Source of the DNA: a virus
Lineage: Duplodnaviria; Caudoviricetes
Strand: one strand, 5' to 3'
IMG/VR virus record: IMGVR_UViG_3300031539_000035
Span: 1-56,561 of that record
Length of the DNA: 56,561 nucleotides
In this document: in pieces, positions 632 to 51,541 of the stretch
Position numbering within the stretch: position 1 is the stretch's first letter
Layout: the number at the start of each line of letters is the position of its first letter
The notes under the pieces: model-generated
The model's input: only the letters and a program-made list of their open reading frames with translations
Databases searched by the model: none
Told to the model about the DNA's origin: nothing
Program-made: the position numbers and the translations under genes

Positions 632-1640
632 TCTGACGGATGAGCAGATCTACTGGCAACTAGTGGATGCGCTCGGTGCTCAGGTGGCCAGCGATGGTGA
701 GGCGCACTGCACCTGTCCCGCCTGTAGTAAGGAAGCCAAACGCGGCCAGACGCACTTCTCGTTCTCGCTGCGCGGCGGGAAATGCATGGTATGTGGGCAG
801 GGATGGGGTTTGCGCGGCCTGGCACGACAAGTGCTCGGCGGTATGCCCGACAAGTACATGCCTAAGCCGCAGAGAACAGTGCCGCCAAAGCGTGCGCGCA
901 TATTCGACGTGGATGGCTGGGAGCGCTTACTAGGGGAGTATGACCGGGCCGGTCGTTACGACTGGGAAGCCTACGCGCCCACGTTGTCGGATGCGGTACG
1001 GCAGGAGCGCGGTTGGACGGTCGGTGCCATGTTGACTGGCACGAGCAAGTGCCGCCATCGGCGTCTCATTCTGCCGCTGCGAGTGGGCGGGACACTGGTG
1101 GGCATCCGCAGCCGAGCGATAGACTGCGACTGCGGCAAGTGGTTGAGCGCATTGGGCACGCGCTCGGTCCTCTACAACGGGGCACGCCTCCTGACTCCAG
1201 GGGCTCCACAGCCGGACGACGTGGGCGATGCGTCTGGCAAGTGGCGAGCGCAGGGCACGTGGCTATGGATCGTCGAGAATCCGGTGGACGCGATCCTGAT
1301 CGAGAATCAGGTGAGCAAGGCAAGCGCGGTAGCCACCCTCGGCGTGAGCATGTGGCGGGATGGGTGGACTACGCTGGTGCGAGATTGCGGTGCGCTCGGC
1401 GTGATCGTGGCCTACGACAACGACGCGCCCGGGAACGTGACGCCAGGATGCGCCGGAATGATCGCGCGGTCGTGGGGCGAGGATCATGGGAGCGAGCCGC
1501 CGGCCAACGGCAATAGGCTGGTGAACCGGTTGCTTGAGGCGGGCGTCAAAGCAAGGTTGTTCGGCTGGCCAGAGGGGACGCCGCTGAAGGCCGATCTGGG
1601 AGATACCCTGAGGAAGAAAGCCTTGGAGGTATCGGAATGA
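618..1640 (+). CDS. DNA primase (Zn finger + TOPRIM)
   Basis: N-terminal CPAC...CMVC zinc finger; TOPRIM motifs WIVENPVDAI and IVAYDND; C-terminal KADLGD. Confidence 0.8.
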   Translation: MDTHSLTDEQIYWQLVDALGAQVASDGEAHCTCPACSKEAKRGQTHFSFSLRGGKCMVCGQGWGLRGLARQVLGGMPDKYMPKPQRTVPPKRARIFDVDGWERLLGEYDRAGRYDWEAYAPTLSDAVRQERGWTVGAMLTGTSKCRHRRLILPLRVGGTLVGIRSRAIDCDCGKWLSALGTRSVLYNGARLLTPGAPQPDDVGDASGKWRAQGTWLWIVENPVDAILIENQVSKASAVATLGVSMWRDGWTTLVRDCGALGVIVAYDNDAPGNVTPGCAGMIARSWGEDHGSEPPANGNRLVNRLLEAGVKARLFGWPEGTPLKADLGDTLRKKALEVSE

Positions 1641-2993
1641 CATGCTGGTTACAATGTGAGGTATGTAACAGGAAGAGTGGCCCAGGCAGTTGGCCCACGT
1701 TCCAAAGTGCTGGCTGGCGAGCTACCGGTGAGCACTGCTACTGCCCAGCGCACCGATGGAGAGGGATGCTGACGAAGACACAACGGCGACTAGCGCACAG
1801 ACGGGGTGCGCAGGTGGAGGCTGGGACGTGAAAGAAGAGAAGATCATCATAGCGTCGTGGAGGCCATCGTCCCGCGAGTACGTGGATGTGGAGGTGTCGG
1901 CATCGGTGAAGGGCGGGCTGGCGATTCACGAGGCTACCACTGGGGTAGCGGGTTTGCACACGCTGACTGTAGTTGCCTGTGGGCTGGCCATGACCAGTGG
2001 CAAGAAGCGCACTTTGCAGGCCATGCGGCGGGCGCTTCTGGAGACTGCCATTCCATGGAATGAGTTAATAAGTAAAGAGGCCGCGAAACCATACATGAAC
2101 GAGATGATCCGTGTCATGAACTCGACACGATGACCACAGAGGTGTCAATCATGGATGGCGAGATCCTACGGCGGAGCGTCTGCGAGGTGTTGGGGCCTGG
2201 CGCCGAGGTGACGGTGGTAGTCGGGCGACAGGGGCAGGTGGACGTGCGACTGGACGCGGCACAGTGGCAGCGGATACGAGACGCGCTGACCGAATGCGAA
2301 CGGCGATGGCCACCACGGTATAGCATCGATGATGTCGTGCAGCGGACTATGATAAGGGTGAAGAGAAAATGAGCTTTAGGATATTGTTCGACATTAGTGC
2401 TGATACTATGTTTTCCAGCAAGACCGTGGCTATTGCTGGCCACAATAACGATTGGGCGGCCTACCGAGGTCCAAGTGATTGGTCTGATGAGGCGGTTGTG
2501 GCTGATGGCGATAAGCTGTCCAAGAGAGAAGCCGAGCCGCTGTTTTGGGTAATGATCTGTAGTGGCAGAACCTATCGGTGATAGATGTAGCGGACTAAGC
2601 GTTGACAAGGGAGGCAAGGTGAGCGACCTGGAGAACGTGCAAAAGGGCGATACCGTGATCTACTGGCCAGCCAGCGAGTTCGAGCCACCGGAGTTCGTGC
2701 CAGTGGAGCACGCGACCAAAACCGTGATCGTGGCCAAGGGGCAGCGCTGGCAGCGCAAAACGGGGCGCAGTGTCGCACATAATGCGCGCGTCTGGTGGCC
2801 GGACTTTCTGCGAATCGAGGATGTAACGGAGGAGTCACGCCACAAGGCCGAGATAGCCATTGCGGCATACGTCGAGAGGCAGCGGCGGCGCGATGCGGAG
2901 AGAACTATCCGATATGCGCGGCTGGAACTCGTGCCGGTGGATGTGCTGGAATCTGTGGCGATATTGTTGCGTGAGGCCGGAGGAGAGGCATGA
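1637..2993 (+). CDS. cluster of small hypothetical genes (1637-1831, 1828-2133, 2130-2372, 2369-2581, 2619-2993)
   Basis: Tightly packed ORFs, most with ATGA/GTGA start-stop overlaps and GGAGG-like SD sequences. Confidence 0.6.
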
Positions 2994-3316
2994 CGACCAT
3001 GCTGGAGGTTTTGCTGGCCGTGGCCCTGGCGATGCACGGCCTGAGCGCGGAGTACGACTATGCCGCCTGCATCGTTCAGCGCGAATCTAACTGGCAGGTC
3101 GATGCCCTGGGTGCCGCAGGCGAGATTGGGTTGAGTCAGATCAAGTCGAGCACCGCTGCTTGGTGGGCGGGCCAGCTGGGGTGGGGCGAGGAGTGGGACG
3201 CGGGCACGCGGCTCTACGATCCGGCGGTAAACCTCTATCTGCTCGCGTATGGCCTGGCGAACGGCTATGGTGCGCATTGGTCCGTTGCGCGACTTTGCCA
3301 GGAGTATCTACCATGA
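2990..3316 (+). CDS. lytic transglycosylase (SLT domain) with hydrophobic N-terminus
   Basis: IVQRESNW (catalytic Glu), GEIGLSQI, LYDPAVN motifs. Confidence 0.75.
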   Translation: MTTMLEVLLAVALAMHGLSAEYDYAACIVQRESNWQVDALGAAGEIGLSQIKSSTAAWWAGQLGWGEEWDAGTRLYDPAVNLYLLAYGLANGYGAHWSVARLCQEYLP

Positions 3317-3816
3317 GAGATAAGAGGGTGCGGAGCGGGGTATATCAAATCCGTAACATAGTAACGGGCGGGCGGTATGTTGGCAGCACGATTCATCTGA
3401 AGAAACGATGGGCTATTCATCGCTGGATGCTTATTTATGGACGGCATGATAACAAGCCATTGCAACGTGCACATGATGAATACGGATTGGATGCACTGCT
3501 ATTCGAGATTTTGGAAGAGACAGCGGACTTGATTATGCGTGAGCAGTTTTATCTTGACACATTGCGGCCAGAATACAACCGCCATCCGAATGCGGGGTCT
3601 GCCTTGGGATACAAGGTTTCAGAGGAGGGGCGACGGAATATCAGTGCTGCGCAGATAGGGCACTCAGTTGGAAACAAAACTCGTTTCGCAGTGGCAGAAG
3701 CAAACAGGCGTCGTCATCAGTCCGATGAAACGCGGAGGCGCATTAGTGAAGGGCTCAAACGTGCCTACAGCGAAGGACGACGGTCGGGTTTTGCTAAGCC
3801 GATATCGCATCTATGA
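3313..3816 (+). CDS. GIY-YIG homing endonuclease with NUMOD3-like repeats
   Basis: SGVYQIRNIVTGGRYVGS, REQFYLD..PEYN, SEEGRRNIS / SDETRRRIS; lower GC; ATG at 3313 overlaps the upstream stop. Confidence 0.9.
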   Translation: MRDKRVRSGVYQIRNIVTGGRYVGSTIHLKKRWAIHRWMLIYGRHDNKPLQRAHDEYGLDALLFEILEETADLIMREQFYLDTLRPEYNRHPNAGSALGYKVSEEGRRNISAAQIGHSVGNKTRFAVAEANRRRHQSDETRRRISEGLKRAYSEGRRSGFAKPISHL

Positions 3817-4202
3817 TGCAGGAGGAACAGATGACCGAGTACAAGCCCGACGTAGATGAGGCGCTAGAGAGATTCCTGCAGCAGCGGAAGGCGATGCTGG
3901 AATCGGCGACACAATCAATGCGGTCCTTTATGGAGATACTGCTGCCTGCATTCGAGGCCTTTGACAAAGCACTGCATGCAATGCACGCGAGGTATTGGGA
4001 GGAATACCTGGCAGCTGGGGCGCCGTATGATCGCACGGAAGAGGGGTTCGACCGCTGGCTGGACGAGCTGACTGGCAGGGCCGAGATTGAAGCGGCGATT
4101 GAAGAAGCCCAGGAGCGCGAGGAACATCGGTGCTGGTTGAAACAGCTTGCACAGCGATTCCGCAAGACGGAGGACGCGGATGGTACGGCGCAAACAGATT
4201 GA
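3813..4202 (+). CDS. hypothetical protein
   Basis: ATGA-coupled ORF, helical acidic sequence. Confidence 0.6.
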   Translation: MMQEEQMTEYKPDVDEALERFLQQRKAMLESATQSMRSFMEILLPAFEAFDKALHAMHARYWEEYLAAGAPYDRTEEGFDRWLDELTGRAEIEAAIEEAQEREEHRCWLKQLAQRFRKTEDADGTAQTD

Positions 4203-5100
4203 ACAATTGGTGAAGGAGGCGGCCGTGAGCGATTGGCGTGGCGGCCTTGCCGAGTGGGTTGAGGGTGATACGGCGTATCTGTCGGTGCCGTTCACATGGG
4301 AGCTCCAAAACGCCCATCAGCGCGCCGTCTGGCTGCGCGAGAGTGGCTATCGCGTCCGTGCTGGCGGGCCAGCTGTCTCGCTCATGCCCGAAATGATGGC
4401 CGACGTGGCCGAACTCGGTGGCGAGGTGGATGCCCTACCGCACCACAATCCGCGGGCGACGTTTACCAGTCGGGGATGTATTCGGCGATGCCCATTCTGC
4501 GCCGTGCCTAAGATTGAGGGCGACCTGCGCGAACTGGCCGATTGGGAACCGCGCCCGATCGTTTGTGACAACAACCTGCTGGCGTGCTCACAGAAGCACT
4601 TTGATACCGTGATTGACCGGCTCAAGCCGCTCGAGGCCATCGACTTCAACCAGGGCCTCGACGCGCGGCTGTTGACCAAACATCACGCCGAGCGGTTGGC
4701 GGAACTGGACTGCACGGTACGGTTGGCCTGGGACCACATCGACACGGGCAATGCGTTCATGGCGGGGTATGAGAAGTTGCGGCGTGCTCACATCCCGAAA
4801 AAACAGATACGAGTCTATGTGCTGATCGGCTACAAAGATACGCCGGATGATGCATGGTTCCGATTGCGCACGGTATGGAACCTCGGCGTCAAGCCGAACC
4901 CGATGCGGTATAACCCGCTAGACGTGATGGTACGCGATGCCTATGTCGGACCTGATTGGACTGACGATCTGTTGCGCCAGTACATGCGCTATTGGGCGAA
5001 CCTGATCTACACGGCAGGGGTGCCGTTTGGCGAGTGGTTGGGCCTTCTCGCTGGGTACCAAGCGATGAGGAGGATGGATGGTACGGCGCGCGATATCTGA
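4180..5100 (+). CDS. radical SAM protein
   Basis: TSRGCIRRCPFC (CxxxCxxC), DNN, DFNQGLDARL, VYVLIGY; GGAGG before ATG 4180. Confidence 0.88.
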   Translation: MVRRKQIEQLVKEAAVSDWRGGLAEWVEGDTAYLSVPFTWELQNAHQRAVWLRESGYRVRAGGPAVSLMPEMMADVAELGGEVDALPHHNPRATFTSRGCIRRCPFCAVPKIEGDLRELADWEPRPIVCDNNLLACSQKHFDTVIDRLKPLEAIDFNQGLDARLLTKHHAERLAELDCTVRLAWDHIDTGNAFMAGYEKLRRAHIPKKQIRVYVLIGYKDTPDDAWFRLRTVWNLGVKPNPMRYNPLDVMVRDAYVGPDWTDDLLRQYMRYWANLIYTAGVPFGEWLGLLAGYQAMRRMDGTARDI

Positions 5101-5590
5101 GGAAGCTGCCCGCGAGGCGCACGCCTGGTACATGGCCGAGTCTTTTCGCACGCTGGCTCAGGCGGCGACTCAGTACGGCTTGAACCGGGAGTCTCTGCGG
5201 CTGAAGGCGCACACGCTCGACCTGCCGATGAAGGCGCGCGGCCCGGAAAAGAACGGGCCAGATCGACCAAAGTGCACCAGTTATAATGGCATACTGGAGG
5301 CCTACCGCGCGGGTACGTCGGTGGAGAAGTTGAGCATTCGCCTGGGGTTGCGAGCGGACGCCATTGTTGAGATTCTGCGGGCAGGTGGCGAGGCCTGCGC
5401 CAGGTGCAAAGTCCTACTCCGGGAGCACACTCCGTACGGGATTGCCGTATTGGCGAACGGCAGGCGGGTTTGCCAGGAGTGCGTGGAGGAAGCGCACTAT
5501 CAGGTAGTGAGATGGGATCGCCCGCCGGTGGAGATCGTACGCGACTATTGCGAGATATCCGATGTGTATGCGTGGCAGGGGGAGAGGTAA
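5078..5590 (+). CDS. HTH / Zn-finger putative DNA-binding protein
   Basis: Two HTH-like segments plus CARC...CQEC. Confidence 0.5.
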   Translation: MVRRAISEEAAREAHAWYMAESFRTLAQAATQYGLNRESLRLKAHTLDLPMKARGPEKNGPDRPKCTSYNGILEAYRAGTSVEKLSIRLGLRADAIVEILRAGGEACARCKVLLREHTPYGIAVLANGRRVCQECVEEAHYQVVRWDRPPVEIVRDYCEISDVYAWQGER

Positions 5591-5594
5591 ACAA

Positions 5595-5620
5595 CTGTCG
5601 CCTTTAGGCGACAGCTTTTC
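5595..5620 (+). terminator. probable intrinsic terminator
   Basis: CTGTCGCC-TTTA-GGCGACAG hairpin followed by CTTTT. Confidence 0.5.
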
Positions 5621-5715
5621 CCTAGTCGGTGTTACCGACTGAGAAGTACGGCCGGCTTACAGCGGCCCAGCGGGCAATGTTTCCCGCCGCGATTGCCAGA
5701 AAAGGGAGGGGAGAG

Positions 5716-7866
5716 ATGAGGCGACTAGATGGGCAGGATATGCGGAATGCTTATGAGGTGGCGAGGCGTTTCAATGAGTTGGCGGAGGAGGTGGATGCCA
5801 AGTTGGACCACCTGTTCGAGCGGATGGACTCGATCGAGGGGGTTATGGAGCACGGTCATCACGAGGCGCCCGTTCTTACGATTGTCGGCTCGCTGGCGCC
5901 AGAGCGGGAGGCGGCCGACATCGACGACGAGGGCGACCCTGGCGAGTGCCCCGAGTGCGGCGCGCCGTACCAGATCGTGCGGCCGGGCAAGGTCCAGGAT
6001 ACGTGCCGGTGCGAGGAGGTGAGGCAACTCACGGATGAAGTGGTCGAGCTGCGGCGGCGCCTGGCTGAGAAGCCAGTGGGCGTACTGGCCGAGATCGAGC
6101 GGCGGCTGGCGTCCAGGGCCGAGGTGCTGACGGCGGTGGATGAGTTGAGAAAGCAGGTGGCCGAGGTACAGCAAGAATGCGCGGCGGTGATGGCCCACAG
6201 TGGGCAGCTAATGGCGGAGAACGAGCGGCTGCGTACCGATAACGCCCGGCTTGCCTGTGGCTATGCAGAGCGGCTAGGAGACCATCAGGAGAACGAGCGC
6301 CTGCGGGCCGACAATGCGGTGGTGCGAGGTTCCAACGATCGGCTGTGGGGTACACCAGTAGGGGAAGGGTGAAAGATGCTATCGGAAAGGACCAAGAAAG
6401 TCATTGAAAGTGCCCGTAGGCAGCTCGACAGGGACCCGCACTTAGCCAACTACATGCTCCGGGACCTGCCCGAAGTCAAGGAGTTGGGCCTGAGTGAGTT
6501 GGCATGGGCGATGCATCGAGACGGTAGTCTATCGAAGAACGATGTACTGGGTTTGATCGAGGCGCTGGAGGCCGCGCAGGTGGAGGAAGGCTGACATGCA
6601 AAGAAAGATTGTAGAGCGCCTGACCGACACCTGCCCGACATGCGACGGCAACGGCAATACGATGGACGCCAGGGGCCATCGCTTTATGCCGTGCTGGCGT
6701 TGCCATCAACGCGGCTGGGTCACTTGTGAGGAGCGCGACGTGACCGCCGAGCACGACGCGGCCATGGCCGAGCTGGCTTGGTTGCGAGTAGAGAATGACG
6801 CGCTGCGAGCGGATGACGTCATGATACGCGGCGCACTGGATACGATCAGGCGGTGGTACGAGGCGGTGGAGGAGGGACGATGAGCCAGACTAGCACGACG
6901 GCACCGACTCTCGACCTGGGGCAGGTGATAGCGCCCTCGTACTACGAGCTGGTGCTGCTGATGCGCCGCTTCACTGCGTGCACCTCCACGGAGGTGGTCG
7001 GCCTGGACGGCTGGCGCGACGTGCGCGTGCCGGAGGAGTTGTGGCGCCAGGTGCAGGAGGTGATGGGATGATTCTGGCGATGACGATATTTATTGCTACG
7101 TTGCTTCTCGCCTTTGTTGCGGTAGGGCGGTTTCTAGACGAGTGCTTAGAATATCATCCGCCAGACCGCCCGAAGGACTACTGGGCATGTCTGGATCAGT
7201 TTCTTGGTATGGCAGAGCAGCTTTGTCCAGACATTCTCTGGACTGGCCACGTGGTCCCAGATAAGGCTCTGATTGAGGTTGGCGCTATGACCCATGGTCC
7301 TCATGGGACTGTGGCAATGCGTAAACTTTGGACGTATGAGCACACGTGGCATCGTCCGGAGGATATTGCGATGGTGATGGCGGAGGATCTGCGCAGGAAG
7401 TTGGGGGAGAGATATGCCATGGTGGGGATTCGCGCTGATTCTGGTGGGCCTGATTCTGCTGCTGGTAGTCTATTGTGTGCTGCGCATCGCCAGTGATGCG
7501 GACGACAGAATGGAGGGGGGACTGTGATCTCACCAGGCTGGGCATTGTTACTCGGGATAGTCGGCGGCGGCATTGGGGCATTGATCGGCATGGTCTTTGT
7601 GGCGTTCCTGATGGGGCGGTGGATGAAACGCCAGGAGGCGCAGCAGGCGGCGGACCGCATTCTGCGGGGGATCCGCGACAATGGGAGTTCGTGAGCACCT
7701 GGAGGCGGCCAGGGCGTTTCGCACGGCGGGATACGCGCTATTGGCACTGGCCAGCGACGCGGAGCGGTGCATGAACGGGGAGTGGGCAGAGCAGAAGGAC
7801 GGTATTCTGGCGAGGCTAGGCGAGGTCGTCGCGCGGGTGATGAACGGGAGGATACATGCCCAATAA
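5716..7866 (+). CDS. cluster of hypothetical genes (5716-6372 coiled coil + Zn ribbon, 6376-6594, 6596-6883, 6880-7071, 7068-7496, small membrane proteins 7414-7527 and 7524-7694, ~7691-7866)
   Basis: Coupled starts/stops and SD motifs; 7414 (MPWWGFALILVGLILLLVVY..) and 7524 (MISPGWALLLGIVGGGIG..) are <60 aa single-TM ORFs absent from the supplied track. Confidence 0.55.
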
Positions 7867-9318: not shown

Positions 9319-10392
9319 ATGAGCCCGATTCTCGGACTGACTCAAGACACGGATCGCATCGCGCAGTTCCCCAGCCTTGGCCGCCTTCGCAAAGGGGCGC
9401 CCATGGACCCGAACAAAAAAGGGCCGGGGCGCGAGCTGCGCTACTTCCGATTCACGAGCGACCTGCCCGACGTACAGACCGCCTTCGAGACAGCCCACGG
9501 CAAGGAACCGTCTATCCTCACTATCTACCTGCCCTATCCTGGCCTCGACGAGAACTTTGCCACCTGGCGTGAGGAGTGGAAAGCCGGGGGGCTCCAGCAC
9601 CGCTGCAACGGCGCTGACTGCACCGTCTGGCTGGAGAATGGCGCCTACGTGCTGGCTGACGCTACGCACAAGAAGGCCTGCCCCTATGCCGACAAGGCGC
9701 AGCGGGAGTGTAAAGTGATCGGGCGCCTCACGGTGATCGTCCCGGAGCTATGGGCTGCCGGCTACGTCGGTTACGTGACGCTTGGGACTGGGAGCATCCA
9801 TGATGTTACCAGTATCTACGACAGCCTCAACGCCATTGCCGAGTCGCAGATGCATGGCGGACGTTCGGTGGACCTGCGCGGGATCCCGATGGTACTGCGG
9901 AGGGTTGAACGGGAGATCTCGACGCCGGGGACTGACGGCAAGCGGGCACGACGAAAGCACTGGCTGGTGACGCTCGAGCCAGCGGCCAAGTGGGTGCGGG
10001 GATTGCAGCAGATCACGAAGTTGAGCCTACCTATGCTCAAGTCGGGCGTCGAGCAGGACGTGTCAACCGACCAAGGGCCCGCGGAGTTTGAGGACACCGA
10101 AGTAGTGGACGCCGAAGTGGTGGACGAGGCCACCGGCGAGATCGTTGAGGAGCAGATCGAGGAACAGGTCGAGGCGCCTCATTGGGCCAAGGATGAGGCC
10201 AAGCAGAAGGCGCTTCTGGACAAGGGTAAGAAACTTAAGCTGTCCAAGGCCGAGCTTCTGCGCCGGCTCGGCGTGGCGGAAGGCCAGACCATCAGCGACC
10301 TGCCCATCACTTTCGAGCAGGCCATGGCCCTACTGGACACGGAACCGCTGGCGGTCGGCCCGGATCTGGCTCAGGAGTCGATGCCGTTCTAA
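9319..10392 (+). CDS. recombination directionality factor-like / single-strand annealing protein
   Basis: GRLRKG..YFRFTSD..HRCNG..CP..C..IGRL.V.VP..G.V.L.TGS pattern; acidic C-terminus ending MPF (SSB-like tail). Confidence 0.65.
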   Translation: MSPILGLTQDTDRIAQFPSLGRLRKGAPMDPNKKGPGRELRYFRFTSDLPDVQTAFETAHGKEPSILTIYLPYPGLDENFATWREEWKAGGLQHRCNGADCTVWLENGAYVLADATHKKACPYADKAQRECKVIGRLTVIVPELWAAGYVGYVTLGTGSIHDVTSIYDSLNAIAESQMHGGRSVDLRGIPMVLRRVEREISTPGTDGKRARRKHWLVTLEPAAKWVRGLQQITKLSLPMLKSGVEQDVSTDQGPAEFEDTEVVDAEVVDEATGEIVEEQIEEQVEAPHWAKDEAKQKALLDKGKKLKLSKAELLRRLGVAEGQTISDLPITFEQAMALLDTEPLAVGPDLAQESMPF

Positions 10393-12009: not shown

Positions 12010-12133
12010 GTGGACGTAGCTCAACGGCAGAGTGCCTAAACGCCCTCGCCAAATCCTTACCCGATTACGGGTCGGCTGGATGAGGGTTACCACTTGAAAT
12101 GGGGTGATGCAGGTTCAACTCCTGCCGTCCACA
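12010..12133 (+). ncRNA. tRNA-like Y RNA (YrlA-like, in tRNA order)
   Basis: Acceptor GTGGACG/CGTCCAC, D arm GCTC-AACGGCA-GAGT, T arm GCAGG-TTCAACT-CCTGC; ~53 nt structured insert in the anticodon arm with CTTACCCG/CGGGTCG Y-stem-like helix; adjacent to Ro60. Confidence 0.7.
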
Positions 12134-12139
12134 ATGAGC

Positions 12140-12234
12140 GTCGGGGTCGATCTTATCCGATGCGTCGTGTGATAGTCGGGCCGGCTGACTACGGTTATCA
12201 GGATAAATACCCGTGGTCAATACATTTGCCCGAC
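12140..12234 (+). ncRNA. second Y RNA-like ncRNA
   Basis: Ends pair (GTCGGGGTCGA / TTTGCCCGAC) with a GGTCGA bulged-C motif; internal TTATCC/GGATAA and TAGTCGG/CTGACTA helices; followed by a T-tract. Confidence 0.6.
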
Positions 12235-12255
12235 TTTTTCTTTTGGGGAGGAACG

Positions 12256-13842
12256 ATGAACTACGGGCGACACTATTCGACGTTGGAGACGCCGCAGTCG
12301 GAGCCGCTGGCGGGCCAGGTCCAGAACTCGGCCGGGGGCCACGCCTATCCGGTGGACGATTGGGTGCGGCTGGACAGGTTCCTGATCCTCGGCTCGGAGG
12401 GAGGCTCGTACTATGCCACCGAGCACAAGTTGACTCGCGACAACGCCAAGGCGGTCGAGCGGTGTATTGCTGCGGATGCCGCTCGCGTCGTGCGGCGGGT
12501 GGTCGAGATCAGCGATTCCGGCAGGGCCGCGAAGAACGATCCGGCCCTGTTCGCCTTGGCGCTATGCACCACGTCTGCGGCCAAGGCGGACGCTTTCGCC
12601 GCGCTGCCCAAGGTGGCGCGCATTGGCACCCATCTCTACCATTTTGCTGAGTACGTCGAGGGCTTTCGCGGCTGGGGACGCGGCCTGCGCACGGCGGTTG
12701 CCAGGTGGTACGACGAGAAGTCGGTTGAGAATCTGTCCTACCAGGTGATCAAGTACCGTCAGCGGGACGGCTGGACGCACCGGGATATGCTGCGGCTGTC
12801 GCACCCGAAGAGCGCGCGCAATAACGCTGTCTACCACTGGATCACCAAGGGGGAGTCCGCCGGGTTACCGCTGATCGATGCGTACGTGAAGGCGGCGGCG
12901 GCGGAGACTGAGAAGGAAGTCGTCTCGCTTATCGAGGGGTACGGATTGCCCTGGGAGGCCATCGATACCAAGTGGTTGGGATCCGCCGCTGTCTGGGGTG
13001 CGCTCTTGCCACACCTTCCGGCGATGGCCATGGTTCGCAACCTGGGGCGGATGACGGCCAACGGCCTGTTGGGCCCCTTTGCCGACGCGAACAAGCGCGT
13101 TCTGTCCGTGCTGACCGGGGAACTACCGCGCGTGCACCCGTTCGCCGTTCTGTTGGCGCTGAAGACCTACGCGCAGGGGCATGGGATGAAGGGATCCCTC
13201 AACTGGCAGCCCGTTTCGGCCATTGTGGACGCTCTCGACGCGGCTTTCTATAATGCGTTTGGTAACGTGACGCCGACCAACAAGCGGATCGTGCTCGCCA
13301 TTGACGTGTCCGGATCGATGGATAGCCCGATGATGGGGTCTCCTCTGACGTGCCGGGAGACGGCGGCGGCGATGGCGCTCATCACGGCGCGGACCGAGCC
13401 GCAGCACGAGATCATGGCGTTCGCGGAACGGTTCGTGCGGCTGGAGATCTCACCGCGAGAGAGGCTGGACGACGTGGTGAACAAGACAGCCGCGTTGCGG
13501 ATGGGGGGCACCGACTGCGCTCTGCCGATGATGTGGGCGCTTGGATACGATGAGAAGATGGATAGTTACAGGGATAGCGGCTACGAGAAGAAGCGGCAGT
13601 CGATCTACAAGGCGGATGCGTTCGTGGTCTACACCGACTCTGAGACCTGGTGCGGGGCCATCCACCCGACGCAGGCGTTGGCAAAGTATCGCAAGGAATC
13701 GGGAATCAACGCCAAGTTGGCGGTTGTGGCCATCGTGCCCAACGAGTTCAGCATTGCGGATCCGAACGATGGTGGGATGATGGACGTGTGCGGTTTCGAC
13801 ACTGCGGCGCCCGGGATCATCGGCGACTTTGTGGGGAGTTGA
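12256..13842 (+). CDS. rsr: Ro60 / Rsr TROVE-vWA RNA-binding protein
   Basis: QVQNSAGG, RLDRFLILGSEGGSYYA, KYRQRDGWTHRDMLRLSHP, RNLGRMT, MIDAS DVSGSM, GGTDCALPM, YTDSETW, DVCGFD; GGAGG SD before ATG 12256. Confidence 0.96.
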   Translation: MNYGRHYSTLETPQSEPLAGQVQNSAGGHAYPVDDWVRLDRFLILGSEGGSYYATEHKLTRDNAKAVERCIAADAARVVRRVVEISDSGRAAKNDPALFALALCTTSAAKADAFAALPKVARIGTHLYHFAEYVEGFRGWGRGLRTAVARWYDEKSVENLSYQVIKYRQRDGWTHRDMLRLSHPKSARNNAVYHWITKGESAGLPLIDAYVKAAAAETEKEVVSLIEGYGLPWEAIDTKWLGSAAVWGALLPHLPAMAMVRNLGRMTANGLLGPFADANKRVLSVLTGELPRVHPFAVLLALKTYAQGHGMKGSLNWQPVSAIVDALDAAFYNAFGNVTPTNKRIVLAIDVSGSMDSPMMGSPLTCRETAAAMALITARTEPQHEIMAFAERFVRLEISPRERLDDVVNKTAALRMGGTDCALPMMWALGYDEKMDSYRDSGYEKKRQSIYKADAFVVYTDSETWCGAIHPTQALAKYRKESGINAKLAVVAIVPNEFSIADPNDGGMMDVCGFDTAAPGIIGDFVGS

Positions 13843-17444: not shown

Positions 17445-17740
17445 GTAGGCCAATGTAGATAGGGGCCTGCCGCACCGAAGTCGGTGGTTATGCCGCCGAT
17501 ACTGGTTACAGGTGTGCGCATCTGTACCCGTAGGTGCGGTGGGCCAGCGCGACGCCGTAAGATACCTGGTGACCCTAGTCCCGGTGACCGGGACCCAGCC
17601 GTCGCTGCAATGCGAGAGCGAGACAGAGTGAAATCGGGGCCCAGGTTGGCGTGCGTTGGTAAGTAGGAGGACGGCGTGCACGGGAGAGCCTACCGGCGGC
17701 ACACCGAGCGCGTAGTCAAGGCGAGAGCGTGCCGCCTATG
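17445..17740 (+). ncRNA. large structured non-coding region
   Basis: Nested helices (e.g. 17469-76/17533-40, 17544-56/17648-59, 17564-69/17641-46, 17578-84/17588-94, 17695-702/17729-36) and GNRA loops; no convincing ORF. Confidence 0.55.
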
Positions 17741-45771: not shown

Positions 45772-46197
45772 ATGCTACAGCATCCGTGTCCAGGGGCGAG
45801 GCGCACCAACCCGTTCGGCTCGCGGACGGTGGACTATAGCGCGTTCGGGTTGACCGCTCACAATGGCGAAGATTTTGCTGGCTGCGATGCTGCGCGCGCC
45901 ATGGCCACTGGCGTCGTCGAGCGCGTTGGCAACGATCCGGCCGGCTACGGGATATACGTCACTCTGCGCCACGATTGGCAGGGCGGACAGCACTACCGCA
46001 CGCGCTACGCGCACCTGGCGCGGGCTTACGTGCGCGAGGGCGATATCCTGCAACAGGGCGACGCGCTCGGACAGGTGGGGGCCACTGGCAACACGACAGG
46101 TCCGCACCTGCACGCCGAGTTCGAGCCGGGGTTGGTGACTGCGGACGGGTTGAAGGGACGGCGGGCGTTCTGGCACATGCTGGAGGGGGGCGCATGA
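45772..46197 (+). CDS. M23 family peptidase (endolysin)
   Basis: HNGED (HxxxD), GYG.YV, YAHL, GATGNTTGPHLH. Confidence 0.9.
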   Translation: MLQHPCPGARRTNPFGSRTVDYSAFGLTAHNGEDFAGCDAARAMATGVVERVGNDPAGYGIYVTLRHDWQGGQHYRTRYAHLARAYVREGDILQQGDALGQVGATGNTTGPHLHAEFEPGLVTADGLKGRRAFWHMLEGGA

Positions 46198-46679
46198 AGA
46201 AAATACTCCTTACACAGGGGAAAGTGAGCCTAGTCGATGATGATGACTATGAGCGCCTCGCCCGATACCCATGGTGTTATAAGGGCTCTGGCTATGCCGT
46301 GCGCCGAGGGCCGGTCACAGATGGGAAACAGAGCCTTCTGTACATGCACAAGGAGATTCTGAACATTGGCCCCGAGAAAGAGGTAGACCATATCAATCAC
46401 GATCGTCTGGACAACCGCAGGGCTAATCTACGAGTCTGTGACCACAAACAGAACGCGCGAAACATGAAGCGGCGCGAGAGAAAGACTTCGCAATTCATTG
46501 GCGTGTATTGGGAGCGCGCCAGACGCAAGTGGCATGCCCAGGTCAAGTTGAATTATCGGGCACGGTTCATTGGGCGGTTCGACTCTGAGGAAGAGGCGGC
46601 AAGGGCATACGACCAAGCAGCGGTCATGCTACATGGTGAGTTCGCCTCCACGAACGAAAGAGAGGGCCTCTATGGGTAA
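46194..46679 (+). CDS. HNH-AP2 homing endonuclease
   Basis: LVDDDDYE, VDHINHDRLDNRRANLR, SQFIGV..FDSEEEAARAYD..GEFA. Confidence 0.92.
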   Translation: MKKILLTQGKVSLVDDDDYERLARYPWCYKGSGYAVRRGPVTDGKQSLLYMHKEILNIGPEKEVDHINHDRLDNRRANLRVCDHKQNARNMKRRERKTSQFIGVYWERARRKWHAQVKLNYRARFIGRFDSEEEAARAYDQAAVMLHGEFASTNEREGLYG

Positions 46680-47910
46680 CATGTTGGGATACCACATCGG
46701 AAACGAGGGGCCTATCACGGATATCGACTGGCAGATCATGGAGGCGGTTAAGCCCGGTTACGTGACGTTGTTGCCCAACTATGGGATGCATGGGCAGCCG
46801 ATAGGCCGGAGGGATATCAACTGTATCCTGACTATCAATCCAGGCTGCCATTTTGTGCTGCGGCCTTACCTGCCCGGTACTGCCGTGAGCACGAGCGTTG
46901 CCGAGTTTGGCAATGCGATTGATCGCCTGCTGGACGAATGGAGCGATTGGGTGCCGGCCGGGCAGAAGCACTTGCAGCTGTTCAACGAGCCCAACATGCC
47001 GATCAGCGCGGAACAGTGGGAGGGCTTTGGCGACCAGCTGGCGGACATGATGCGCTACAACGAGGTCTGGCTAGGCTTGGTGCGGCGACTGCGGGCGAAC
47101 CACCCCGACTGGCTCTACGGCTGGGGGCCGCTCACAATCGGGAACCGGGACGTCTGGTTCCCGGGCGACGCGGTGGGGCATTATTATCTGCACGGGCCGG
47201 CTGGGTGTCAGGCGAGCCTCACGGCGGCGCAGCTTGGCGAGGCGATGCGGACCGGACCCTGCTACGCCAGTCTGATGGAGGCGGACGAATTCTACGCGCA
47301 CGTGTACATCCATCGGATACCGGAGAACACGCACGATGGGCGCGTGAACTTTGGGGACGCGGCGATCGGGTTGAGGCACGAGCGGATGCAGTTGTTCCTC
47401 CCGAGGCCGATGCCGACGGTGATCACCGAGGCGGGCTATCCGAACACGGGGAACTGGCCGACGTGGGCAGGACCTGCGCTCCTGGATTGGCTGGACATTC
47501 TGCACACGCGAAACAACGTGGCGGGGGTATGCCTATGGATACTGGGTGAGCATTGGGGAGGCATGTGGTACTCGGGGGGAGCGCCACGTGCTGAGGTCGG
47601 ACAGTTGGCTCAGTGGCAGTGCGCGCATTCGGGGGTGCCCATGACAGACGCGGAACTCGAGCGGATACTGGGTGACGAGTTGCAGTTGTATATCGTTCCG
47701 CTGAACCCGGATGCGGCGTTGGAAAAGGCGGCGGCTCGCCGGGGGCTGCTGCCAGCGAGTGACGAAAAGCGGAAGGCCGTAGGAGGTACGGTGTGGGTGG
47801 CACAGGCGTTCCGCAAAGCGGCGGATGCCAAGACGACCCAGCACCTAGTCCGCACACGAGAAGGGGAGTGGGCTGAGGGGGATATGCGATGGTGGATACG
47901 GGAGAACTAG
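46672..47910 (+). CDS. glycoside hydrolase clan A-like protein in the lysis module
   Basis: LFNEPN (acid/base), HVY, VITEAG (nucleophile). Confidence 0.65.
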   Translation: MGNMLGYHIGNEGPITDIDWQIMEAVKPGYVTLLPNYGMHGQPIGRRDINCILTINPGCHFVLRPYLPGTAVSTSVAEFGNAIDRLLDEWSDWVPAGQKHLQLFNEPNMPISAEQWEGFGDQLADMMRYNEVWLGLVRRLRANHPDWLYGWGPLTIGNRDVWFPGDAVGHYYLHGPAGCQASLTAAQLGEAMRTGPCYASLMEADEFYAHVYIHRIPENTHDGRVNFGDAAIGLRHERMQLFLPRPMPTVITEAGYPNTGNWPTWAGPALLDWLDILHTRNNVAGVCLWILGEHWGGMWYSGGAPRAEVGQLAQWQCAHSGVPMTDAELERILGDELQLYIVPLNPDAALEKAAARRGLLPASDEKRKAVGGTVWVAQAFRKAADAKTTQHLVRTREGEWAEGDMRWWIREN

Positions 47911-47933
47911 CGGGGGGAGAAAAAGGCGTTGAG

Positions 47934-48287
47934 ATGCCAGTCGAAATGGAAGACGTGGAGCGGCTGTTAGAGGATACCAGGCGCCAGTTCACTAGGGTGG
48001 AGAGGGGGCTGGATCGGCAGGACGCCCAGCAGCGCGCCATGGACGTTGCGGTCGCCAAGCTCCAGCAGATCATGGCGGATCGGGGTGCCTCGTGTCCATG
48101 GCGCGTGGACATTGCGGACGTGGCCAAGTCGGCGAAGGTCCACGCTAGTGAGATACGGCAGTTGACTGGGGCGGTGAGCGACCTGAAAGTCAAGGTCGCG
48201 ACGATCGCTGCCGGGGGCGGGGTGGCCGGTGGGCTAGTGGCCGTGGTAGTGCGGCTGGTTGTGGATGCGATCGGTCGAGGAGGGTAG
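47934..48287 (+). CDS. coiled-coil + C-terminal TM lysis-module protein
   Basis: Heptad region followed by a hydrophobic tail. Confidence 0.55.
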   Translation: MPVEMEDVERLLEDTRRQFTRVERGLDRQDAQQRAMDVAVAKLQQIMADRGASCPWRVDIADVAKSAKVHASEIRQLTGAVSDLKVKVATIAAGGGVAGGLVAVVVRLVVDAIGRGG

Positions 48288-48288
48288 A

Positions 48289-48624
48289 ATGACGCTCCGA
48301 GAAGGGCTGCTATGGCTTATGGGGATTGGGGCTGGGGTTCTGGCGTTCTACGCTATCGATAGGCTGGAGAATCAGAATCGGTGGCCGATCATCGCCGCTT
48401 GGCTGGCGATGCTGCGCCCTGACGATAAGCGGGCGCTAGCGTTTGCGGTGACGGCCGGGGTTGCTGTTATCGCGTATCTGGGCACGCTCCTGATGCTGTA
48501 CGAGATCACGCCTACCAGTTGGCGGATGTGGGTTGAGGAGCTGTTCAAGGTTTGCGCGGCGGCCATCGTGGCTGGCCAGGTCGCACATGGGCGGGTGGTG
48601 CTTCGACGCCGAGTGCCCGATTGA
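48289..48624 (+). CDS. holin-like membrane protein
   Basis: 2-3 TM segments, basic C-terminus, end of the lysis cassette. Confidence 0.65.
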   Translation: MTLREGLLWLMGIGAGVLAFYAIDRLENQNRWPIIAAWLAMLRPDDKRALAFAVTAGVAVIAYLGTLLMLYEITPTSWRMWVEELFKVCAAAIVAGQVAHGRVVLRRRVPD

Positions 48625-48642
48625 TTGGTGATCTCGTAAAAT

Positions 48643-48672
48643 GGGCGCGCTCGTAGGGGTGCGCCTTTTTTT
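48643..48672 (+). terminator. intrinsic terminator ending the late operon
   Basis: GGGCGCGCTC-GTAG-GGGTGCGCCT plus a T-tract. Confidence 0.8.
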
Positions 48673-48743
48673 GTGTCCTGGGAACCGGCCATGCGTAGAA
48701 ACAATTATTAACCTAATATTAACCTTATGACATTGGAAAGCCC

Positions 48744-48772
48744 TTGACAACCTGATTTACTTGTGCTATAAT
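48744..48772 (+). promoter_or_regulatory. consensus sigma70 early promoter
   Basis: TTGACA-17-TATAAT, TGn extension, AT-rich upstream region. Confidence 0.9.
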
Positions 48773-48956
48773 GATTGCAGGATAAGGAAACGGAACCTTA
48801 ACAAACGAGCGCCGAGCGAGAGCGGGAGCCCAAAGGGCCGCCACACTAGACTCCGGGGCCGAGAGGCACCACCTCCAAAGTCACTACAGGGACCAGGGGG
48901 GCGGGAGAAAGGGCCGAATAGCCCAGAGGGGCCGCGAACGCAAGGCAATCCAAAGA

Positions 48957-49022
48957 GCCGAAACCCCAGGCGGGAAGCCGGTTGGGGTCTGGCTAGGACG
49001 GCAACCTAGCTACTGATGAGGC
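48957..49022 (+). ncRNA. type II hammerhead ribozyme 1
   Basis: GCC-GAAA-stemIII-GTC^-TGGCTAGG/CCTAGCTA-CTGATGA-GGC; predicted cut after 48989. Confidence 0.9.
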
Positions 49023-49043
49023 AAGCCAAGAGGGAGAGACGAA

Positions 49044-49337
49044 GTGGGCGCCAAGAAGCAGATCAGCGAGGCTGTTCGTGCCATTCGTGGTTTGGCACGG
49101 AAGTACGGCATGGCTGCCTTGAACGAGGCCACGATTTACAGACTGTGGGAAGAGCTTGCGGGATATCAGCCCGAGTCGGAGTTCGCACGGTTCTACTTCC
49201 AATGTACTGGCCGAGAGTCTAGGCAAGTGGCCCGCGAGGTTATGTGCACCTATCGGCGCGATGATTGGACCGTTACTGTTACGGCGCGGCTCATGGATGG
49301 TTCCGAGTATTGCTTCAAGGCCAATGAGAACGCATAG
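49044..49337 (+). CDS. small early protein
   Basis: GGAGAG SD right after hammerhead 1; stop abuts hammerhead 2. Confidence 0.7.
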   Translation: MGAKKQISEAVRAIRGLARKYGMAALNEATIYRLWEELAGYQPESEFARFYFQCTGRESRQVAREVMCTYRRDDWTVTVTARLMDGSEYCFKANENA

Positions 49338-49400
49338 CCGAATCCCCGGAAGCCCTTTTCCGGGGACTGGCTAGGACGGCAACCTAGCCACTGACGAGGC
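49337..49400 (+). ncRNA. type II hammerhead ribozyme 2 (U15.1-A16.1 core variant)
   Basis: GCC-GAAT-CCCCGGAA/TTCCGGGG-AC^-TGGCTAGG/CCTAGCCA-CTGACGA-GGC; cut after 49367. Confidence 0.85.
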
Positions 49401-49420
49401 AAGCCAAGAGGGAGGCAGCA

Positions 49421-49726
49421 ATGAAGGCACCGAGGATCGACGAGACGAAGCTCCGGTACGCGCACCAGGAAGTGCGCGAGATGGCGGAGAGCCTCTACGG
49501 GAGCAGTCGCAATTGGAAGCGGGCCCTGACCACAGCGGAGCGAATCATCTGCGAGCCTGGCCATGTCTACGTCGGCACGGGGGAGCAGCTGGAGCGCATA
49601 GATGGAATGATCGCCACCTACATCGCCGAAGGCGATCAGTGGAACCTTCTGGACCCAATGATTGCCTACGGCTACAGCGCCGTCAGCAAGCGCGGATGGG
49701 AAGCCTGGGGCATCGCGCAGGGATAA
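49421..49726 (+). CDS. small early protein
   Basis: GGAGG SD; between hammerheads 2 and 3. Confidence 0.7.
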   Translation: MKAPRIDETKLRYAHQEVREMAESLYGSSRNWKRALTTAERIICEPGHVYVGTGEQLERIDGMIATYIAEGDQWNLLDPMIAYGYSAVSKRGWEAWGIAQG

Positions 49727-49728
49727 GA

Positions 49729-49792
49729 GCCGAATCCCCGGAGAGAAACCTCCGGGGACCGAGCGGGGTTGACCACCCGCCGCTGATGAGGC
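49729..49792 (+). ncRNA. type II hammerhead ribozyme 3 (U15.1-A16.1 variant)
   Basis: GCC-GAAT-CCCCGGAG/CTCCGGGG-AC^-stemI-CTGATGA-GGC; cut after 49759. Confidence 0.85.
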
Positions 49793-49814
49793 AGGTTACG
49801 AAAAGGAGAATCCA

Positions 49815-50387
49815 ATGAGTCATAATCACCTCCCTGAGATCAAGTTCGATACTAGCCTCTACACTAACCGATATGGCAAGCGGCCGCACGGTTACGGCCT
49901 CTGGGCATTCTCCTGGAAGAACACCAGTGGCGGCTATAATGTCACCGAGTGGACTGGTTGGTATTCTGACGCGAAGGCCAAGGCCCGCGAGGTCGCTCGC
50001 ATGAGCAAGCAGGCCTTCCCCTGGATTCGCACAGTCAACGTTCTGCCCTAGAGATCACGCCCAGCCAGTCGGGCAATAGACCGGCAGGAGGCTACGATGG
50101 CTACATACACGATCACGACAAGATACACTGTCACGGCGAGCAGAGCGTATAACCTAAACCCGCATTTGCGAGATGCCCTTGCCGCGATTGCCAACAATCG
50201 CATAAGTATGACTTTCTCTCGTGAGGGGCAGGGGCGAGGCCGTGAGCTTCTCTGGGAAGTCCAGAATGTCCGATATGAGGATACGGCGCTGGTTGAGGCG
50301 CGGGTGCCAACTCTCACGGCACTGGAGGCCGGGTTTCTGGCCGGGTTTTTCGAGGCCCGCGGGGTTCCAGTAAGGATCACGAAATGA
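49815..50387 (+). CDS. two small early proteins (49815-50051, 50097-50387)
   Basis: AAGGAG and AGGAGG SDs. Confidence 0.7.
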
Positions 50388-50448
50388 GCCGAAACCGCCA
50401 GGGAACTGGCGGTCCGAGCGGGGTTGACTACCCGCCGCCGAATGAGGC
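50388..50448 (+). ncRNA. hammerhead ribozyme 4, atypical core (CCGAATGA)
   Basis: GCC-GAAA-CCGCCAG/CTGGCGG-TC^-stemI-CCGAATGA-GGC. Confidence 0.65.
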
Positions 50449-50499
50449 AGGTCGAATACGCAAATGCGGGCAGAGTCGAGACACAGACGGAGGATCACA

Positions 50500-51456
50500 A
50501 TGGACACCAATGAGCGACCAGTTGCCGACCCCGAATACGCCGGGTACTGGCTCGGAGCCGGATACCGGTGGGATACCGAGGAGCGCGCGGCAATCGCTAT
50601 TCGAGACGTATACGCTGTTGACGTTGCAATGGCGCCGGTCCGGGCGCTCCCTGAGACATTGAGCCGCGATGAGTACGAGACTGCGGCAACAGAACTGGGA
50701 ATCGCCCAGCTGGCCGACACGGAGATCGTTCTGAGCCGACACAGTGTCCGCAACTGCCCCCGGCCCCCCGAGTCCCGACTGACCCGTTTTGTCCAAATGG
50801 CACTCGCGGAGCGCCGCCTCGACGGGATTGAGGCCGAGCGCGCTGCACAGCCGAAGCGGACAATCCACTACATCCACTGCGACTGCGGCCACGACGTCCC
50901 CGAGGGAGAGCGGATGAGCGCCTCACTCGGGAGCTCCTGTTTCGACTGCTACGACCGAATGAGCAACTAGCCCTCCGAGTCTCAGGAGCCGAGCGCCAGT
51001 TCGGCTCCTGGCCTGGGCGGACTAGAAGAATCAAGGAGGAAGATCATGGGCACCTATCGTTTCGATCTGCAGCACACTGGCCGGCCGTTCGGTCCGTGCG
51101 AGGTCATCCCGGATTGGGCCTGGAAGGGGCTCTCACGGTACACGACCCTGAGTGCCGCGAGAAAGGCAGAGGATCGTGTACGGGGAGACATGCACGAGGC
51201 AGCCGGACCGGCCGCCTGGACCGACCACTTCCGAGTCATTCCGCTGCGGGATACTAGGTTGACCCAGACATACGTGTGTCTGGGAACGATTCGGCATGAT
51301 CCGTCGCCAGACTGCGCGGTATCCATTGATGTGACGATAACCTGGCCTGCTGGGAAATCGGAGCCCTTTCCAGCGACGCCTGGCGGCTGGGCCAGTCCCT
51401 ACCAGTGCGCGGCGTGTGCGGCGATAGACGAGGTGGCGCGACACGAGATGGCCTAG
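50500..51456 (+). CDS. two early proteins (50500-50970 with C-terminal Zn ribbon; 51046-51456)
   Basis: GGAGG SDs; CDCGH..CFDC. Confidence 0.65.
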
Positions 51457-51512
51457 TCCCCTCACCACAGGCCGCCGAGACGGCTCGGCGGCCTCCATGA
51501 GCGGATTGTCTA

Positions 51513-51541
51513 TTGACAACATGATACCTTTGCGCTATAAT
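51513..51541 (+). promoter_or_regulatory. consensus sigma70 promoter
   Basis: TTGACA-17-TATAAT; TTGTC-tatt-GACAA inverted repeat overlaps the -35. Confidence 0.88.

Follow-up and report, generated by a model that had tools for sequence, protein, structure and literature searches.

The soil tailed-phage record IMGVR_UViG_3300031539_000035, a linear sequence of 56,561 bases that we analysed over its whole length and refer to as the window, contains four type II hammerhead ribozyme motifs (HH1 to HH4) on the coding strand of an operon of small genes, downstream of a consensus promoter. We consider it probable, at about 0.72, that these elements cut the operon transcript co-transcriptionally and at unequal rates, and that they also serve as recombination joints.

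To locate the ribozymes we used a descriptor consisting of a stem II of at least three base pairs (bp), GAA, a closed stem III, H17, a closed stem I, a CUGANGA-like box and the partner strand of stem II. Over the full window, both strands included, it picked out precisely four elements, each on the + strand and together within 1.5 kb (Table 1); in forty shuffles of the window that preserved dinucleotides, hits averaged 0.175 with the strict form of the box and 0.5 with the loose form. The type II permutation, in which stems I and III are closed by loops and stem II is open, fits all four copies. These are the same four hammerheads, and no others, that a sequence-only reading of the DNA had named, and its proposed cut sites follow from the motif parse: their spacing defines units of 378, 392 and 655 nucleotides (nt), where it had predicted ~380, ~390 and ~655 nt. 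It had proposed the Rfam hammerhead models as a check. Hammerhead_II (RF02276) was the best family for all four copies, with full-length model alignments that take in the AGCCAA-type tail of HH1 and HH2, and the scores were 33.4, 29.5, 31.4 and 21.7 bits for HH1 to HH4. All four lie below the Rfam gathering score of 37 bits, which is the curators' cut-off and not a biochemical criterion, and a gathering-threshold scan of the window lists no hammerhead. The scores fall short because of the long stem III loop, a U15.1-A16.1 pair, a bulged stem I and an 8-nt box, features to which we return below. A search for a fifth hammerhead in the window, made with a covariance model of the phage group and with filters off, found none, the next match scoring 12 bits (E 0.7).

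The elements occupy a strict position relative to the genes. HH2, HH3 and HH4 start at -1, +2 and 0 nt from an upstream stop codon, as the sequence-only reading had noted; the first G of HH2 is the last base of the p97 stop codon, and HH4 begins directly after the stop codon of p96. From the end of stem II to the next start codon bearing a Shine-Dalgarno sequence (SD) is 21 nt for HH1, 20 for HH2, 22 for HH3 and 51 for HH4, and the hammerheads separate one, one and two genes. Abutment on a stop codon is common elsewhere: 107 of 165 comparator hammerheads (65%) start between -1 and +2 nt from the stop of an open reading frame (ORF) of at least 40 amino acids, as against 330 of 8250 random positions (4%). 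The commonest arrangement places the G of UAG as the first base of stem II. Because of this abutment, the upstream messenger RNA would, once cleaved, carry only the stem III hairpin after its stop codon. The words "stop codon" and "recombination" do not occur in the main text of the 2011 description of natural type II hammerheads (PMC3088659), as judged by a word search, and its supplements may document stop-codon placement.

All four copies have G12, A13 and A14 and a C at position 17, and the 3 bp of stem II are identical throughout. Only HH1, however, has the consensus core (GCC / GAA A ... U C / stem I / CUGAUGA / GGC), and the deviations of the other three had escaped the sequence-only reading. 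The 15.1-16.1 pair is A-U in HH1 and HH4; in HH2 and HH3 it is U15.1-A16.1 (GAAU...AC), which departs from the consensus. The core box C3 U4 G5 A6 N7 G8 A9 is present in HH1, HH2 (with C at the free position 7) and HH3 and is altered in HH4, whose box CCGAAUGA is aligned by Rfam with C4 in place of U4 and one inserted A. Minimum-free-energy folds of HH1, HH2 and HH3 give the three-way junction. Loop I pairs with the 3' tail in the pseudoknot that the sequence-only reading had described, with GGC/GCC in HH1 and HH2, UGACC/GGUUA in HH3 and UUGACU/GGUCGA in HH4.

We identified relatives of the phage by scanning metagenome contigs with a DNA pattern made of the 5' part of the hammerhead and the box. 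This yielded 20 loci, of which four were true relatives. Contig L136 is 87% identical to the window over positions 46008-49417 (p97, 96%; p136, 86%; p66, 96%); L131 carries the lysis genes and the leader along with three hammerheads; L141 has the leader and a p101 of 85% identity; and L129 has the end of p101 and the orthologue of HH3. Together with the window these five sources contain 12 hammerheads under model R1, with E values of 1e-16 to 1e-20 for the orthologues in the relatives, which were used in building it, and 7e-8 for the twelfth (L131 3330-3407), which is independent of its building. The exact stem I strings of both types were absent from viral contigs, and a search of known phage records with window positions 48700-51500 (blastn, distant mode) gave no match.

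The 12 copies, aligned to model R1, provided a set for measuring covariation in stems II and III and the pseudoknot. The count excludes stem I, whose two types are offset by one column in the alignment; direct reading of the sequences shows pairing in both types, with a bulged A in one. In a MAFFT alignment HH3 and HH4 lost the register of stem III, and the model-guided alignment was used for the counts. Paired cells amounted to 92.6%, versus 79.3% after shuffling, and none of 500 shuffles reached the observed value; with the partners slid along the alignment the figure was at most 52.4%. Stem III has changes on both sides in seven of its nine pairs. The 15.1-16.1 pair is A-U in six copies and U-A in the other six, and the pseudoknot pair 51-78 is A-U in six and G-C in six, so that loop I and the tail co-vary across the whole set.

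The variant cores are themselves kept. The six U15.1-A16.1 copies are retained across relatives that have diverged by about 13% and have differing stem III loops. The 8-nt box occurs in four of the 12 copies: it reads CCGAAUGA in HH4 and in L131 copy 2, CUGAACGA in L131 copy 3 and UUGAACAA in L136 copy 1, and the last of these has U-A in place of C-G at positions 3 and 8, a joint change of both. Copy 1 of L141 has an extra U between A9 and stem II; a similar extra base is found in a viroid hammerhead. For comparison, we scanned loci L004-L148, less six duplicates, leaving positions 3, 4 and 8 free. The C3-G8 pair was present in 132 of 132 well-formed copies, position 4 was U in 125 and C in seven and never a purine, and an extra A was present in three. 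The seven C4 copies (box CCGAUGA or CCGACGA) are otherwise perfect hammerheads and lie in L007, L048 (two copies), L054, L072, L073 and L137; a further C4 copy, in L074, was seen only in a looser scan. Every C4 locus also holds canonical hammerheads. We did not find the C4 variant in PMC3088659, whose supplementary alignments or figures may document it. Since C4 and the extra A both recur in unrelated phage contigs, each of the deviations of HH4 recurs independently. The U15.1-A16.1 pair is rare elsewhere, being present in two of 143 comparator hits, one of them well formed. That the variants are maintained argues against random decay, and their persistence suggests selection.

Several observations weigh against processing at all four sites. 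Besides the sub-threshold Rfam scores, the core departs from the consensus in three of the four copies, HH4 does not adopt the hammerhead as its minimum-free-energy fold (the Rfam alignment does fit one), and the centroid fold of HH3 lacks stem II. The combination of C4 and extra A seen in HH4 occurs in none of the 132 comparators outside the phage group. Few lineages contributed the 12 copies, a mixture of paralogues and orthologues, so that the covariation represents few independent events, and the HH2 orthologues in L136 and L141 have a U-U or U-C mismatch in the third pair of stem I, so that not every change has been compensated. Two more distant relatives reached through proteins, L124 and L125, are without hammerheads, the contig of L125 ending 2.3 kb downstream. 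In the assays reported in PMC3088659, moreover, the wild type was at least 10-fold more active than 15.1/16.1 mutants, a natural U15.1-A16.1 variant self-cleaved less efficiently and weakly, and an insertion after A6 (A6a) gave low activity. Equal and efficient cutting at the four sites is thus not to be assumed. The core deviations lead us to expect unequal and, in HH2 to HH4, mostly slower cutting than in HH1, and the transcript would therefore probably be only partly processed at those three sites.

A harsher interpretation of the same facts is that only HH1, or none of the four, is active, and that HH2 to HH4 are dead descendants, either kept as hairpins that stabilize 3' ends or insulate translation or else simply not yet eroded. 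Deviant cores in three of four copies, scores of 21.7-31.4 bits for those three against a threshold of 37, the weakness of such variants in the published assays (PMC3088659) and the scarcity of U15.1-A16.1 among the comparators are all as this interpretation would have it. We nevertheless think it unlikely, since a plain hairpin would need none of the features that have been conserved: every copy keeps the rest of the core unchanged, the odd box persists in copies that have diverged elsewhere and is once accompanied by the compensating U3-A8 pair, the partners of the pseudoknot still co-vary, and C4 and the extra A are found in unrelated phage contigs, in hammerheads that are perfect in all else, whereas purines at position 4 are never found. 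We favour the view that HH2 to HH4 would cut, more slowly than HH1.

At the level of DNA the elements are mosaics: among the relatives, the 5' half of a hammerhead assorts independently of its 3' half. L136 copy 1 has a 5' half that matches HH1 at 100% identity and a 3' half that matches HH3 at 84% and HH1 at 51%; in this copy loop I and the tail were swapped together, and the pseudoknot was kept. In HH2, likewise, the 5' half matches L136 copy 2 and L141 copy 2 at 100% identity and the 3' half matches HH1 at 95%. The genes between the hammerheads vary as well. The region is bounded by a conserved left flank (lysis genes, promoter, leader and first hammerhead) and a conserved right flank (p136, second promoter and p66), and the gene content between these flanks differs in every one of the four relatives. 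The window has p97, p101, p78, p96 and p156 in that order. L136 has p97 followed by three unrelated genes separated by a second kind of intergenic hairpin, element B (see below); L131 has five other genes, with hammerheads and element B between them; L141 has p101 directly after the first hammerhead and then other genes; and L129 has another gene after the orthologue of HH3. The suggestion of the sequence-only reading that the repeats might be recombination boundaries, to be judged by comparing gene content in related phages, is thus upheld by both the independent halves and the differing genes.

Contigs of four soil runs also join halves of different copies, for example 48985>50411, 48988>49759 and 49366>50414, and run from hammerheads into other genes. 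We read these joints as probable hybrid hammerheads of co-occurring strains. We also considered and rejected whole-gene deletions as their origin, because hybrid hammerheads like those of L136 and L131 explain the joints equally well.

Mosaic halves, gene content that differs in four of four relatives, hybrid joints in soil contigs and the repetition of element B in the same intergenic position would also be expected if the main selected role lay at the DNA level, the elements being portable junctions for cassette exchange and RNA cleavage incidental. Any repeat would provide homology, though, and this explanation, which we regard as distinctly improbable, leaves unaccounted for the conserved catalytic core, the covariation of the pseudoknot, the G-U pairs that work on the + strand only, and the way in which the elements are confined to the gap from stop codon to SD. 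The two roles could coexist, and our preferred reading, in which the hammerheads both cut RNA and act as joints, includes both.

We infer the following course of events from the anatomy of the elements and of the operon. Host RNA polymerase would transcribe the operon, and in the nascent RNA stems III and I would fold as hairpins, the 3-bp stem II would close the junction and loop I would pair with the tail. Each element would then cut after C17, freeing the leader as an RNA of ~210 nt, the three units of 378, 392 and 655 nt, and the downstream RNA. In the upstream product of each cut the stop codon would be followed directly by the stem III hairpin, ending in a 2',3'-cyclic phosphate, and the downstream product would begin with a 5'-OH and the stem I hairpin, some 45-80 nt before the start codon. 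Ends of this kind, bounded by hairpins and carrying a cyclic phosphate or a 5'-OH, are expected to slow end-dependent decay. In the DNA, the elements would act as short shared homologies through which halves of hammerheads, and with them gene cassettes, could be swapped.

Such 5'-OH and 2',3'-cyclic phosphate ends are also substrates of the ligase RtcB, and the cleaved units might be ligated, by RtcB or by the reverse ribozyme reaction, into circular or spliced RNAs, as the presence of a phage Ro60 homologue beside a tRNA-like RNA elsewhere in the window could hint; in some bacteria Ro60-type genes share an operon with rtcB. A search for RtcB (PF01139) in the record, 66% complete, found no such gene, the sequence offers nothing that would bring a unit's two ends together, and the authors of the 2011 study report, as data not shown, that circular or spliced products went undetected (PMC3088659). 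We thus find no support in the window for circularisation of the gene-sized units and hold it to be very improbable. That the four elements are chance resemblances of GC-rich intergenic hairpins to the hammerhead consensus, as scores under the Rfam threshold and 0.5 loose-descriptor hits per shuffled window might suggest, is refuted by the four hits, all on a single strand, inside 1.5 kb and flanked by a stop codon and an SD, by orthologues in four relatives including the independent twelfth copy, and by the covariation.

The array is another case of the clustered phage hammerheads already in print. The first natural type II hammerheads and their pseudoknot were described in 2011 (Perreault et al. 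2011; PMC3088659), in an article whose main text reports clustered hammerheads flanking single genes in prophages of Agrobacterium tumefaciens, Azorhizobium caulinodans and Clostridium scindens, three tandem arrangements that cut at all sites in vitro and one in E. coli, and the proposal that long phage transcripts become gene-length mRNAs. Since clustering in prophages and a role in mRNA cutting were published then, the layout of the array is not itself new. As in those clusters, small non-conserved genes of a phage operon are separated in the window by hammerheads on the coding strand, which are of type II with a pseudoknot between loop I and the tail and include U15.1-A16.1 and A6a as natural variants; a compensating U3-A8 change for the C3-G8 pair is likewise described there. 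As far as the main text of that article goes, the window differs in having core variants in three of its four copies, with U15.1-A16.1 in six of the 12 copies of the group, in having an 8-nt box that accompanies C4 or U3-A8, and in the visibly mosaic ribozyme halves among its relatives. Reviews likewise state that hammerheads flank small non-conserved phage ORFs and leave their function open in the passages concerned (PMC6155905, PMC6765202).

Two other systems bear comparison. HH1, which lies 21 nt before the first gene, resembles the HHphage element of haloviruses HF1 and HF2, which immediately precedes the opening gene of an early polycistronic transcript and for which the mapped 5' end is within 3 nt of the cleavage site (PMC3088659); unlike the array in the window, that element is a single copy, a different structural variant and in an archaeal virus. 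Arrays as such are common in viral contigs, where a degenerate hammerhead pattern found at least 120 stretches and Hammerhead_II gave nine, four and four matches in G004, G003 and G005 (nine, three and two of them above the gathering score). The densest that we noted are L126 (G004 1077-7043), with nine Hammerhead_II matches above the gathering score in 6 kb, and the metagenome contig L137 (58-10165, - strand), with eleven descriptor hits in 10 kb. The second system is that of the T7 early genes, whose polycistronic transcript, made by the host polymerase, is cut by RNase III into gene-sized mRNAs with hairpin ends. Element B, a long imperfect hairpin, is like the T7 RNase III sites in shape. 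Unlike T7 processing, hammerhead cuts need no host enzyme, and they leave a 5'-OH and a cyclic phosphate in place of a 5'-phosphate and a 3'-OH.

The operon runs in the order leader, HH1, p97, HH2, p101, HH3, p78, hairpin spacer, p96, HH4, p156, element B and p136 (Table 1). A terminator-like hairpin closes the preceding unit, which contains the lysis-region genes, and a second consensus promoter starts the next; the region of this second promoter and the gene behind it, p66, are conserved in L136 (p66 at 96% identity). The layout fits the putative "early" timing that the sequence-only reading had proposed for the operon.

Table 1. Positions of the hammerheads and other features of the operon in the window.
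Feature	Position	Strand	Description
Intrinsic terminator-like hairpin with T-run	48643..48676	+	10-pair stem, 7 G-C, then TTTTTTGTGT
Sigma-70 consensus promoter	48744..48772	+	TTGACA, 17 nt spacer, TATAAT, TG before -10; 12/12 matches
Leader	48779..48956	+	Purine-rich, non-coding, ~180 nt; start inferred from -10 hexamer
HH1	48957..49031	+	Stem II to 49022, pseudoknot tail to ~49031; canonical core GAAA...GUC, CUGAUGA; predicted cut after C 48989
p97	49044..49337	+	97 aa, GTG start; no family match; 96% identical in L136
HH2	49337..49409	+	Stem II to 49400; U15.1-A16.1, box CUGACGA; predicted cut after C 49367
p101	49421..49726	+	101 aa; no family match; 85% identical in L141
HH3	49729..49800	+	Stem II to 49792; U15.1-A16.1, box CUGAUGA, bulged A in stem I; predicted cut after C 49759
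p78	49815..50051	+	ORF; no family match
p78-p96 spacer	50052..50096	+	Short hairpin, no hammerhead
p96	50097..50387	+	ORF; no family match
HH4	50388..50456	+	Stem II to 50448; A15.1-U16.1, box CCGAAUGA; predicted cut after C 50414
p156	50500..50970	+	SD GGAGG upstream of ATG at 50500
Element B	50967..51025	+	~60-nt imperfect hairpin between p156 stop and next SD; z -5.0
p136	51046..51456	+	Conserved right-hand anchor of variable region; 86% identical in L136
Second sigma-70 consensus promoter	51513..51541	+	12/12; starts next unit, after p136

The leader, which HH1 would cut off as a separate RNA, is conserved in L136 and L141 and is also present in L131. One-base indels between co-occurring strains argue against its being coding; its predicted fold is no better than that of shuffled sequences (z -1.39), and it had no match in Rfam. 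Searches of Pfam and PHROG matched none of nine proteins of the region, namely the six from p97 to p136 and three encoded upstream; the host-takeover or anti-defence roles suggested in the sequence-only reading gain no support in either direction. For p101 there was no usable match in Atlas, and no protein relative in viral contigs. The Cys-rich C-terminal part of p156 has relatives in L124, where the match covers the C-terminal 44 residues only, and in L141; the N-terminus of p136 is present in L141; and an upstream protein of 412 residues has a relative in L125 at 47% identity. Because the spacer between p78 and p96 contains no hammerhead, these two genes would stay together on the 655-nt unit. 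The short GC hairpin in this spacer resembles an intergenic one in L141 (about 940-900, - strand) and may be a third kind of intergenic element.

Element B, which alternates with the hammerheads along the operon, is a second kind of intergenic punctuation. Seven copies occur in the window and its four relatives, always between a stop codon and an SD: those in the relatives are at L136 4095-4144 and 4620-4669, L131 3643-3692 and 3920-3969, L129 598-647 (- strand) and L141 146-195 (- strand), and L141 has an additional variant copy. RNAalifold gives 23 pairs, five of them with compensating changes, and several are G-U pairs that would fail on the opposite strand. Rfam returned no family for the element at E up to 10, only noise resembling microRNA precursors. 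A loose pattern found 116 stretches outside the phage group, which we rejected as chance occurrences in GC-rich DNA, at about the expected number; a more specific pattern found none in viral contigs and three in genome contigs, of which two are in apparent coding sequence and the third, L267, is a doubtful partial look-alike. Judging from its shape and position, element B may be an RNase III site or an undescribed self-cleaving or processing motif.

The record as a whole has a CheckV completeness estimate of 66%. It encodes terminase, portal, head, head-protease and tape-measure genes, carries nearly all its long ORFs on the + strand, and is represented in DNA contigs from several soil metagenome runs; no RNA run turned up for the operon region. 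Its terminase is nearest, at 45% identity, to those of Actinoplanes and Streptomyces phages, a likeness that gives a weak hint as to the host. Elsewhere in the window we note a Ro60 homologue at 12094-13839 (+ strand; TROVE 4.5e-39, Ro60 vWA domain 1.9e-61), at the 5' edge of which an Rfam scan placed a tRNA-like match with a 66-nt insert (12010-12133, + strand); together, 12010-13839 looks like a phage Ro60 with a putative Y-RNA-like partner. A DUF3800-III RNA motif lies at 17546-17657 (+ strand; 64 bits against a gathering score of 43.8). A protein encoded at 9319-10389 (+ strand) has a Gp3-like recombination-directionality-factor domain (7.5e-24), which is a hint that the phage may be temperate.

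Finally, we raise a wider interpretation, which we offer tentatively, as one that is possible without yet being probable: the region from the first promoter to p136 would be a hypervariable array of single-gene cassettes bounded by modules of dual role, the hammerheads and element B. If so, each module would, on RNA, insulate its cassette by giving it a 3' hairpin and a 5' end of its own, and on DNA its homology would allow cassettes to pass between phages, the breakpoints falling inside the ribozyme between stems III and I. U15.1-A16.1, C4 and the 8-nt box would be rate-setting alleles that travel with the cassettes, and element B would be a host RNase III site or an undescribed self-cleaving motif; earlier ribozyme classes were found by the same logic of neighbourhood.

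The locus leaves what is known of clustered phage hammerheads unchanged. With its four relatives it amounts to a compact natural experiment, in which a canonical core stands beside three variant cores within one operon frame, along with a compensated U3-A8 copy, a second intergenic element and cassettes that vary between strains. The stop-codon abutment rule could improve the annotation of small phage genes, and the locus bears on whether phages tune the processing of single genes through variants of the ribozyme core and on whether the halves of ribozymes are joints for the exchange of accessory genes.

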